A stretch of 22,969 bases of DNA from assembly GCA_051747585.1 (NCBI GenBank), contig JBNJGH010000052.1:1-22969 (forward strand), given 5' to 3'. The notes under the pieces are model-generated. The model was given only the letters and a program-made list of their open reading frames with translations. It ran no database searches and was not told where the DNA came from. The position numbers were made by a program, and so were the translations under genes. The DNA is from Candidatus Rifleibacteriota bacterium. GTDB lineage: Bacteria > Muiribacteriota > Ozemobacteria > Ozemobacterales > Ozemobacteraceae. Shown in pieces: positions 1,294 through 21,300 of the stretch; position 1 is the first letter of the stretch; every line of letters starts with the position of its first letter.

Positions 1294-1560
1294 ATTAAAC
1301 CACCGAGCTCACTGAGTCCACCGAGAAATCTTTTTCAGCCTGTATTCCCGCGCACGTCAGATATTCAGAAAAGCACTGGTGTTTTTCTGAATATCTGACG
1401 TGCGCGGGAAAGCCGGACGGTTATACCGCCGGCTTTTACAGTAATACTCTGCCTTAAGAAAAGCATTCATGCTTTTCTTAAGGCAGAGTATTACTGTAAG
1501 CACAGGCTGAAAAAGATTAAAAGATCGGCTCTGTGAACTTTGTGGGCTCTGTGGTTTAAT
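1294..1560 (-). mobile_element. modular palindromic element copy 1 (MITE/REPIN-like), inverted relative to copies 2 and 3, carrying two long palindromes
   Basis: Terminal IR ATTAAACCAC/GTGGTTTAAT with 3x CACnGAG-type heptamers. Closing stem 1327-1343/1502-1518 (17 bp). Palindrome 1345-1410 (32-2-32), GC hairpin 1411-1434, palindrome 1436-1499 (31-2-31, perfect). Mobility is inferred from dispersed homologous copies. Confidence 0.8.
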
Positions 1561-2532
1561 AATTCTTTTTGCTGCGCATTATTGATGCGGCTTCTACGGC
1601 AAGGAAACCTGCCAGAAACATTGTTACCATAGGTACTGTTATAAAAAGAGGCTTACGATGAAAAGAATGAAAATACCAAACACTTATACTTAAAAAACAG
1701 ATAGAAGCAAGCAACTGATTGGCCGAACCAAACAAAGGCCAGATAAGCTTCCACTGACCGGTGAAAATCAATACCGCGGCCGGGAGAATGGTAAAAACAG
1801 TTGCCAGGTGTTTGTTTTTTAAAGGTTTTGCCAGTTTTTCCGGAGCAAAATCGGCCAGCTCCTGAAAAGCGAAGCGCCGCAAGCTACGGTTACAAAAAGC
1901 ATGGGAAAAAGATAACCCAACTTTTCGACTTTAAAAGTAGTAAAAGCGGGAAAAACAATTTCAGGATTATAAAAAAGCATACCGACAAAACCGCCGAACA
2001 GAAGAATGTATAACAAAAAAGAATTCAAATAATACCCAGACAGGCGCAACCGAAGCGACATAAATATAAGCGATCAGCAGATAAAGCCAAATATTCTGCT
2101 TGATCTGCAAAGGATATTCAGATCCAAGCCATACCATCAACAACAGTAATAATACTCCCACAACGGTGGCGCCGCCCAGTCCTACTCGAAGACGGTTTAT
2201 AATGAATCCAAAAACCACCGCCAGCATAATAAACATTACCGAAGAGCTTGCCGCCTGGGGTACAGTAGCAAAGGTTCGGGCAACTATAATGGTAAAAGCC
2301 GCAATTACAAGCGCAAGGGTGGCCCAGGTAAAAAGGAGAAACAATATACTGCCCCGGCAATAGAGGCAAAATGATGACCAAGCACTACCGGAGCTTTTGC
2401 CGGCATATAATCGCCTTCGTCTCTCAGGCGATGTGCCGGGGTCTTAATATTGTCATCAAGTTTAAACTTACCCGCAAGCCATTTTCCATAGGTTAAATAG
2501 GCTGCAATCAATAGAAAAAATGAAACCAGAAC
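1556..2532 (-). pseudogene. cstA: carbon starvation protein A (peptide/pyruvate transporter) pseudogene with internal deletions and frameshifts
   Basis: CstA motifs in order across changing frames: TPAH..D..DY.P...VLGHHFASIAGA / YIYVASVAPVWVL / YLNSFLL..LFPMLFVTVACGA / RFAFQEL..IWPLFGSANQLLA. Under 1 kb, far shorter than intact CstA. In-frame TAA directly upstream of VLVSFFLLIAAY and no convincing start. Confidence 0.9.
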
Positions 2533-18131: not shown

Positions 18132-18306
18132 AAATTTTCACCTGAGATTTTTTTAGTCTATTCGGCTGTCGGCCCTGATTTTTTAACCCAACCAAGTTTA
18201 AATACAGCAAATAATCTTAGTACAGTATTCAACGCCAGTCAAAACCTTTTTTTCACCGACCCGTTAAAATTCTGGTCTTATTTCTTCAGGGCAAATAAAG
18301 AATTTA

Positions 18307-18518
18307 AACCACTGAGGCCTCAGAGGGCACAGAGGTGATTTTTTTAATCTTTTTCAGCCGGCTATTTGTCCTGTGGACAAATAGCCGGCGGTTTCACCGC
18401 CCGGTTTTTCCTTCTTCAGCAAGCCTTCAGAAAAGCACTCGTGTTTTTCTGAAGGCTTGCTGAAGAAGGAAACAATGGCTGAAAAAGATTCTCTGTGTTC
18501 TCTGTGCGCTCTGTGGTT
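18307..18518 (+). mobile_element. modular palindromic element copy 2
   Basis: Flanks AACCACTGAG-GC-CTCAGAG-GG-CACAGAG and CTCTGTG x3-GTT. Closing stem 18346-18359/18477-18490, TTGTCC/GGACAA hairpin, GC hairpin 18383-18406, palindrome 18407-18472 (32-2-32). Confidence 0.8.
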
Positions 18519-18649
18519 ATTTTCTTTATGGCTTTGAGACTTGGTGTGAGGAATTTCTTTTCTGAAACCAACTGTTTGCGGAACTAACTTCCGGTCAACC
18601 GGAACTTACTTTTGCAATTAAGAAGAATTGCTGATCGCATTCAGATTAT

Positions 18650-21014: not shown

Positions 21015-21108
21015 CCCCCCCCGATTTTCTCACCAATCCTCGGTAAAGCTTTATCAGCTGGTTTCCAACACCATTTGTTTATCACTCTCCGTCGACCAGG
21101 AAAATTTC

Positions 21109-21300
21109 ACCACGGAGCTGTTTTCCCATCTTTTTCAACCATGGATTGTCCTTGCGGACAATCAGCCGGCGGTTTCACCGTCCGGCTTTCAGAACAACAT
21201 CAAGCCCTCAGAAAAGCACCAGTGTTTTTCTGAGGGCTTGATGTTGTTCTGAACACTGGTTGAAAAAGATCCTCTGTGATGCTCTGAGTGCTCTGTGGTT
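21109..21300 (+). mobile_element. modular palindromic element copy 3 (left flank reduced to one heptamer)
   Basis: ACCACGGAG left flank. Closing stem 21128-21141/21257-21270, hairpin 21144-21163, GC hairpin 21164-21187, palindrome 21188-21253 (32-2-32), right flank CTCTGTG/CTCTGAG/CTCTGTG-GTT. Confidence 0.8.

Follow-up and report, generated by a model that had tools for sequence, protein, structure and literature searches.

A stretch of Candidatus Rifleibacteriota DNA of 22,969 nt, hereafter the window (contig C52 of genome G000; 4.14 Mb, 330 contigs, 93.6% complete), contains long palindromes in which a variable segment of about 18 nt lies within a conserved scaffold and is repeated, in mirror form, on the other side of the centre. 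CRISPR arrays and other guide stores likewise hold a fixed-length variable segment in a conserved scaffold, and the locus raises the question of whether its segments are cargo of that kind and of how their two copies are kept alike. The original prediction regarded them as possible targeting sequences, records of earlier insertion sites or free ruler DNA, with one arm probably copied from the other. All four variable segments (at 1347–1364, 1438–1454, 18409–18426, and 21190–21207) were found where it had placed them, each followed by a 26-nt centre and an exact reverse-complement copy. They belong to three copies of a cassette, of which copy 2 is listed part by part.

18264–18306, plus strand: remnant of outer MITE end A, with its terminal repeat unrecognisable; boundaries approximate
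18307–18334, plus strand: left end of the cassette, triple CACNGAG
18347–18359, plus strand: left arm of the closing stem (13 bp), ATCTTTTTCAGCC
18360–18386, unstranded: short hairpin A, in copy 2 a perfect 12-bp stem, extended
18384–18405, plus strand: hairpin B, GC-rich, conserved scaffold
18407–18472, unstranded: long hairpin C of copy 2, with 22-bp arms, a 22-nt core and one G·T mismatch
18409–18426, plus strand: variable 18-mer of copy 2, with its mirror copy at 18453–18470; the 20-nt arm occurs in 32/107 copies
18429–18450, unstranded: conserved core AGAAAARCA-N4-TGYTTTTCT, in both orientations among copies
18477–18489, plus strand: right arm of the closing stem, GGCTGAAAAAGAT
18491–18518, minus strand: right end of the cassette, inverted triple CACNGAG
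18519–18578, minus strand: remnant of outer MITE end B; boundaries approximate
1298–1556, unstranded: cassette copy 1, without MITE ends, in the rare form with two long hairpins
1345–1410 and 1435–1500: the long hairpins of copy 1, flanking hairpin B at 1412–1433
21108–21300, plus strand: cassette copy 3, left end partly deleted, with its long hairpin at 21188–21253
21032–21044, plus strand: decayed MITE terminal inverted repeat, upstream of copy 3

The cassette, of ~210 bp, runs from a triple CACNGAG end through one arm of the 13-bp stem, hairpins A, B, and C, and the other stem arm to the inverted triple end, and its predicted single-strand fold is a closing stem carrying three hairpins. More than 100 copies occur in the genome. 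Our search with the core returned 119 matches. We discarded 1 false match, 4 copies at contig edges, and 7 in which one arm has an indel or deletion, which left 107. Among these, 105/107 cores lie outside ORFs of 120 aa or more. Where the flanking genes were assembled on both sides, a rough ORF call placed 26 cassettes between divergent genes versus 7 between convergent ones. The window yielded no Rfam match.

Some copies depart from this plan. Two cassettes (window 1298–1556 and G000:C92:8176–8420) have two different long hairpins around hairpin B; they may have arisen by recombination of two opposite-orientation copies, and no homogenisation is seen between the two hairpins. In a five-copy subfamily (G000:C13, C18, C78, C126, and C133), a stretch containing CTTTGCG-type repeats takes the place of the right stem and of hairpin C, either whole or its right half. 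Next to copy 1, a CstA carbon-starvation gene (1556–2344, minus strand) is spread over at least three overlapping ORFs that leave part of the family model, about 306–458, uncovered; this split gene is either a pseudogene or a frameshifted assembly.

The palindromes are far beyond chance, since the copy at 18295–18525 (231 nt), folded as single-stranded DNA, gave z = −18.6 and was equalled by 0/200 shuffles. Genome-wide, a scan for arms of ≥25 bp with ≤2 mismatches detected 110 core-bearing palindromes; its other results were 76 rows that are runs of N and 10 real palindromes, one of which is a family copy with an altered core, and the base-shuffled genome control (n = 1) contained none. The mirroring of the arms is exact, as had been claimed, but the conserved palindrome is imperfect at its centre, with a G·T mismatch near the loop in three of the four window copies. 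The segment at 1438–1454, reported as 17 nt long, turned out to be an arm of standard length that starts with a T (1437–1454) and has one terminal mismatch. Similarly, the distal 11–12 nt, which had been called unrelated between copies, are so among the four window copies but not genome-wide, where the arms are related. The arm at 18409, taken as a 20-mer, is the commonest in the genome (32 identical copies), that at 21190 is 4 changes from other arms, and those at 1438 and 1347 have their nearest relatives 6 and 8/20 changes away, respectively.

Across the 107 copies, the arms pair perfectly in 84 and only 26/2140 pairs are mismatched, with perfect pairing ending at 22 bp in 74/107. Within a young subfamily of 50 copies, we counted 23 mirrored changes versus 6 one-sided ones, and 8/92 copies have one additional base on both sides. 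The 13-bp closing stem, whose arms lie ~110 nt apart, behaves in the opposite way, with 3 mirrored pairs versus 46 broken ones, as would fit a mirroring that depends on distance; a change in the closing stem of copy 3 (21128–21140/21258–21270) is present in mirrored form. Copying may also overshoot, as one arm reaches 28 bp and damages hairpin B, and hairpin A has been perfected in 2 copies, one of them window copy 2, where its 3′ arm was likely copied onto its 5′ arm. The arm changes do not come in multi-base tracts (8 adjacent pairs vs 6.2 expected, P = 0.26, 12 edges).

The centre of the hairpin adds a second line of evidence. Scored relative to hairpin B, the core mismatch is A·C in 52 of the 107 copies, G·T in 32, symmetric in 22, and other in 1. 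On a 91-row tree, built from few columns and with many unresolved forks, the centre state changes 36 times, compared to 36.6 when shuffled, and even 7 identical cassettes divide into A·C (3), G·T (3), and symmetric (1). In addition, the MITE ends enclose the whole cassette in one direction or the other (74 vs 44 of the 119 raw matches, one of which is false). The excess of mirrored changes in the young subfamily and the presence of the centre in both orientations bear out the original prediction that independent compensatory mutation is unlikely, and they make the copying of one arm from the other likely.

A G·T or A·C mismatch is nevertheless retained at the centre of 84/107 copies, and this persistence is puzzling because a core that has become symmetric cannot revert by copying the opposite arm. 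Symmetric cores arise repeatedly, through 17 changes for 20 rows of the tree, yet form few clades, and in 10 copies the innermost pair is altered on both sides, to T·A. The persistence suggests that mismatch-bearing copies spread better. HUH transposases, which recognise imperfect hairpins, may be a parallel case.

We think it fairly probable that the variable arms form a hairpin stem under neutral drift, with template switching as the likely cause of its mirroring and flipping, and that this stem belongs to a non-autonomous cassette, specific to the lineage and nested in a MITE. A nascent strand would switch to the opposite arm and back, whereby a mutation in one arm would be either erased or copied across, and template switching would also invert the hairpin centre. 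The scaffold (i.e., the ends, stem, hairpins A and B, and core) is likely under selection for mobility, with the arm sequence left free, and the outer MITE is likely mobilised in trans by a DDE transposase. Template switching is favoured on account of the mirrored changes and the freely flipping centre, both of which it predicts. The process is read from its end products alone, and nicks made by an enzyme would look alike. An sbcD homologue is present in the genome. According to the available portions of two reports (PMC8604942, PMC8794818), template switching homogenises arms and inverts spacers; as described there, it shares with our element the mirrored substitutions and indels, the inversion of the centre, and a dependence on short spacers and long arms, whereas our element differs in having >100 paralogous copies, near saturation, and one near-centre mismatch that persists.

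The rate of change and the length of the arms were compared with those of the surrounding MITE. Overall, pairwise divergence is 0.27 in the arms versus 0.17 in the MITE ends; older pairs show 0.42–0.69 versus 0.18–0.30, and the young subfamily shows 0.011 versus ~0.065. This pattern tells against the drift reading unless the cassette and the MITE ends have partly separate (mosaic) histories, as they probably do. Minimum spanning trees of 37 two-ended copies assign 62 substitutions to the left arm plus anchors, at most ~3 per variable site, and 235 per 87 nt and 243 per 90 nt to the two MITE linkers, or ~2.7 per site. Arms and linkers thus change at similar rates, and hypermutation is not needed.

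Arm length is nearly constant at 22 ± 1 bp, so the claim of a fixed 18-nt segment holds approximately but not strictly: among 54 distinct arms, 44 have the standard length, 9 are one base longer, and 1 is one base shorter. The related suggestion of a ruler, or measured length, is compatible with the absence of broad variation but gains no support from it, since length is held equally well elsewhere in the element, which indicates no special constraint. Linker A, for instance, remains at 87 nt in 31/37 copies, and gapped edges number about 6/53 for the arms, while the linkers have 8 indels per 235 substitutions and 11 per 243. A higher figure of 27 arm "indels" in the spanning-tree count is inflated by the alignment of diverged arms.

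Many of the cassettes are nested in a ~369-bp non-coding unit with terminal inverted repeats YAGSAATTCTCGGT. Examination of 41 two-ended copies for a 9-bp target duplication gave 12 matches at 9/9 positions and 9 at 8/9 (21 together), and assumed lengths of 8, 10, and 11 bp produced only 1, 0, and 0 perfect matches. The MITE ends are present in 25/50 other genomes of the family. One of these relatives, G022, has an IS (L190, G022:C71:117396-118959; 1564 bp) with the same terminal repeats, and its product is a 439-aa DDE transposase (PF01609). Since it combines terminal inverted repeats, 9-bp duplications, and ends common to this DDE IS, the outer unit is a MITE. No NCBIfam IS model exceeded its cut-off for the transposase, the IS4 match being far below, and the IS may be ISNCY/ISMae2-like. 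L190 is likely to be related to the mobiliser of the MITE; the sole transposase homologue found in G000 is 24% identical and does not have these ends. The outer unit is also like the type II prokaryotic MITEs in the accessible text of PMC10969869, being non-coding and intergenic, with terminal repeats and a 9-bp duplication. By contrast, the hairpin under study belongs to the nested inner cassette, which is also found without MITE ends. Indeed, 14 rows at 13 loci have no MITE remnant, and the cassette therefore likely has, or had, its own means of moving.

Inspection by eye showed that the MITE ends enclose assorted palindromic cargo in relatives. In G000 and relatives (L172, L174–L179, and L182), many unrelated palindromic or tandem repeats lie between them, and the MITE seems to pick up small repeats of other kinds. 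In the window, 2510–2930 is a decayed MITE-like stretch with remnants of end A and end B around other small repeats.

We scanned 87 genomes of the phylum for the core pattern and found it in one, G000 itself. Whole-element BLAST gave only short, weak matches, in 5/40 relatives. Pattern scans produced nothing in viral or metagenome contigs, and the hairpin B pattern nothing in genome contigs, these being collections that may lack close relatives. A looser genome scan returned at least 49 loci; of these, 1 proved to have triple repeats and 1 a match resembling the core, and the loci as a set were put down to chance.

The cassette ends are more widespread. Inverted CACNGAG-type triples, similar in kind to ours, flank GxxExxY nuclease genes (PDDEXK_3, PF13366) in four related genomes (G008, G010, G009, and G006), at 4/16 loci read, and several other GxxExxY loci have different repeat arrays. 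Gene-less pairs of such ends also occur, with 99 pattern matches in G010 and 80 in G008, compared to 16 and 2 in the control; of the many gene-less elements in these two genomes, the 20 retrieved vary in their interiors and contain no long perfect hairpin. The cassettes of G000 differ from those with GxxExxY genes in that family and protein searches found no such gene in this genome (93.6% complete, 330 contigs), nor was one found in 5 genomes of the same genus, and in that the fixed three-hairpin interior is limited to G000 among the 87 phylum genomes. Judging from its ends, the inner cassette is probably related to the CACNGAG-ended GxxExxY nuclease cassettes, of which it would be a form without the gene. 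The pairing of GxxExxY genes with inverted heptamer arrays is analogous to that of Ssn nucleases with NTS/SRM repeats, as presented in the available part of PMC11893778. The accessible text of PMC3424549 lists PF13366 as of unknown function. A fold search with a GxxExxY model (pLDDT 95) returned nothing within an E cut-off of 0.001; its top rows were Cas4 and exonucleases (best E = 1e-3, TM 0.53), Hjc resolvases reached E of about 0.05, and these matches have no bearing on mechanism. Neither the GxxExxY-flanking repeats nor this element was described in the literature titles and abstracts searched, in which subscription journals are thinly covered.

These ends bring in the alternative that survives best, which we regard as doubtful but worth keeping in view. 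An element-specific enzyme (e.g., GxxExxY acting in trans, or the mobilising protein) would nick the mismatched tip or a four-way junction, and fold-back synthesis would re-copy one arm and turn the centre round with every mobilisation of the cassette; the arm would then act as a structural spacer some two helical turns long. Such an enzyme would fit the retention of the mismatch in 84/107 copies, the end of perfect pairing at 22 bp in 74/107, a predicted fold with three hairpins on a closing stem, and a centre whose orientation is random on the tree and split 3/3/1 among 7 identical cassettes, as well as the triples at 4/16 GxxExxY loci and the gene-less pairs in G010 and G008. It fits poorly with the absence of a detected GxxExxY gene from G000 and from the 5 same-genus genomes, with the 20 gene-less elements of G010 and G008 that have no long perfect hairpin, with mirroring that runs past the junction and reaches hairpin A and the closing stem as well, and with an arm length no more constant than that of the linkers. 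In a fuller form, which we judge unlikely, there would be an undescribed mobile family that pairs a nuclease with repeats, and the cassette would count among its gene-less members; the enzyme would read the mismatched tip two helical turns from the four-way junction in a "flip-flop" hairpin transfer inside a DDE-type MITE.

Compensatory mutation in two steps, driven by selection on a hairpin of RNA or single-stranded DNA, is very unlikely to account for the arms. It could draw on the fact that T·G on one strand is the commonest one-sided mismatch class (10/26) and that nearly all copies are intergenic. The predominance of mirrored changes holds, however, even among the near-identical young copies, the one-strand G·T mismatches (11) have other-strand counterparts (8 A·C or C·A), and selection leaves the inversion of the centre unexplained, so that the flips largely refute it. 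Coding constraint seems unlikely: the arm has a loose 3-base pattern, but several arms contain stop codons in that frame (by eye).

We also consider it highly improbable that the arms are captured spacers, guides, or insertion-site records. Three observations could be put forward in favour of capture, namely a fixed register with near-fixed length, 5/63 arms that lie 8–11 changes from any other (including the window arm at 1347), and the weak resemblance of the GxxExxY fold to Cas4 and lambda exonuclease (E = 1e-3, TM 0.53). The relationships among the arms, however, are those of descent. The 107 copies contain 63 distinct 20-nt arms, the commonest present in 32 copies, and 37/63 lie within 2 changes of another; the mean nearest-neighbour distance is 3.1, versus 5.8 ± 0.1 for column-shuffled arms, and a consensus is kept, with A at position 11 in 59/63 and T at position 2 in 57/63. 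The same arm types recur in contigs of the independent runs X1 and X4. Moreover, a perfectly self-paired segment would make a poor guide. As to processed small RNA, none of the contigs of the one RNA run (X2) lay on the element, although depth was registered in just 5/30 bins.

A search for sources gave a consistent result, as 0/62 distinct 18-mers matched the masked genome of the organism itself within 1 mismatch. Their best matches had a mean of 2.77 mismatches, compared to 2.92 for 186 shuffles. Matches at ≤2 mismatches were somewhat commoner for the arms (20/62) than for the shuffles (34/186), in part because near-identical arms match the same sites, and by eye the 20 two-mismatch matches in this genome revealed no shared flank. 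The network of arms is thus largely gradual and lacks own-genome matches within 1 mismatch, findings that speak against the proposals that the segments were taken up from outside, serve in targeting, or record insertion sites, and the capture reading is refuted for most arms. We conclude that the variable 18 bases belong to a freely drifting hairpin stem and were not captured as spacer or guide.

Diversification by reverse transcriptase was likewise ruled out, the arm changes not being adenine-specific (C/T 16, A/G 12, others 20). G000 has two RT genes (L002, G000:C198; L003, G000:C43), presumably one group II intron-like RT and one retron-type RT, and no tie to the cassette was seen for either. 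Contigs of runs X1 and X3 show hairpin B together with 12 nt of the commonest arm (window 18385–18421) in other surroundings, which may be the end of a gene; this arrangement was found neither in G000 nor in metagenome contigs.

An assembly or library fold-back artefact is scarcely credible, for although the repeat breaks contigs and many copies lie at contig ends, copy-specific arms recur in contigs of independently sequenced runs, summed contig depth over the element is about 700–850 in X1 (about 7 on the flanks) and about 760–790 in X4, and the flanks and core are asymmetric, with 26 one-sided mismatches kept.

A drifting stem copied between its arms by template switching, our preferred reading, places the cassette near other non-autonomous hairpin repeats. 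In REPIN spacers, as covered by the available text of PMC3116915, length and pairing are kept and the sequence is free, with frequent compensatory changes. The cassette resembles REPINs as a non-autonomous, multi-copy hairpin element with an inner stem that varies while keeping length and pairing, but it ends in CACNGAG triples rather than REP doublets and folds into three hairpins on a stem. The sole Y1 transposase of the genome scored 65.4 against a RAYT cut-off of 80 bits; the cassette is absent from its downstream flank, and the upstream flank is cut by a contig end. From CRISPR arrays the cassette differs in that its segments are homologous to one another, pair with themselves, occur singly at scattered sites, and have no sources in their own genome. 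A store of guides or spacers would have been important, and that reading fails.

Collectively, the >100 paralogues provide an unusually clean natural record, within one bacterial genome, of arm-to-arm copying and centre inversion. They also carry a warning, as perfect covariation of a stem is possible without any RNA function. If the retained mismatch and the CACNGAG ends reflect recognition by GxxExxY proteins, the cassette would offer this large nuclease family a ready-made substrate.
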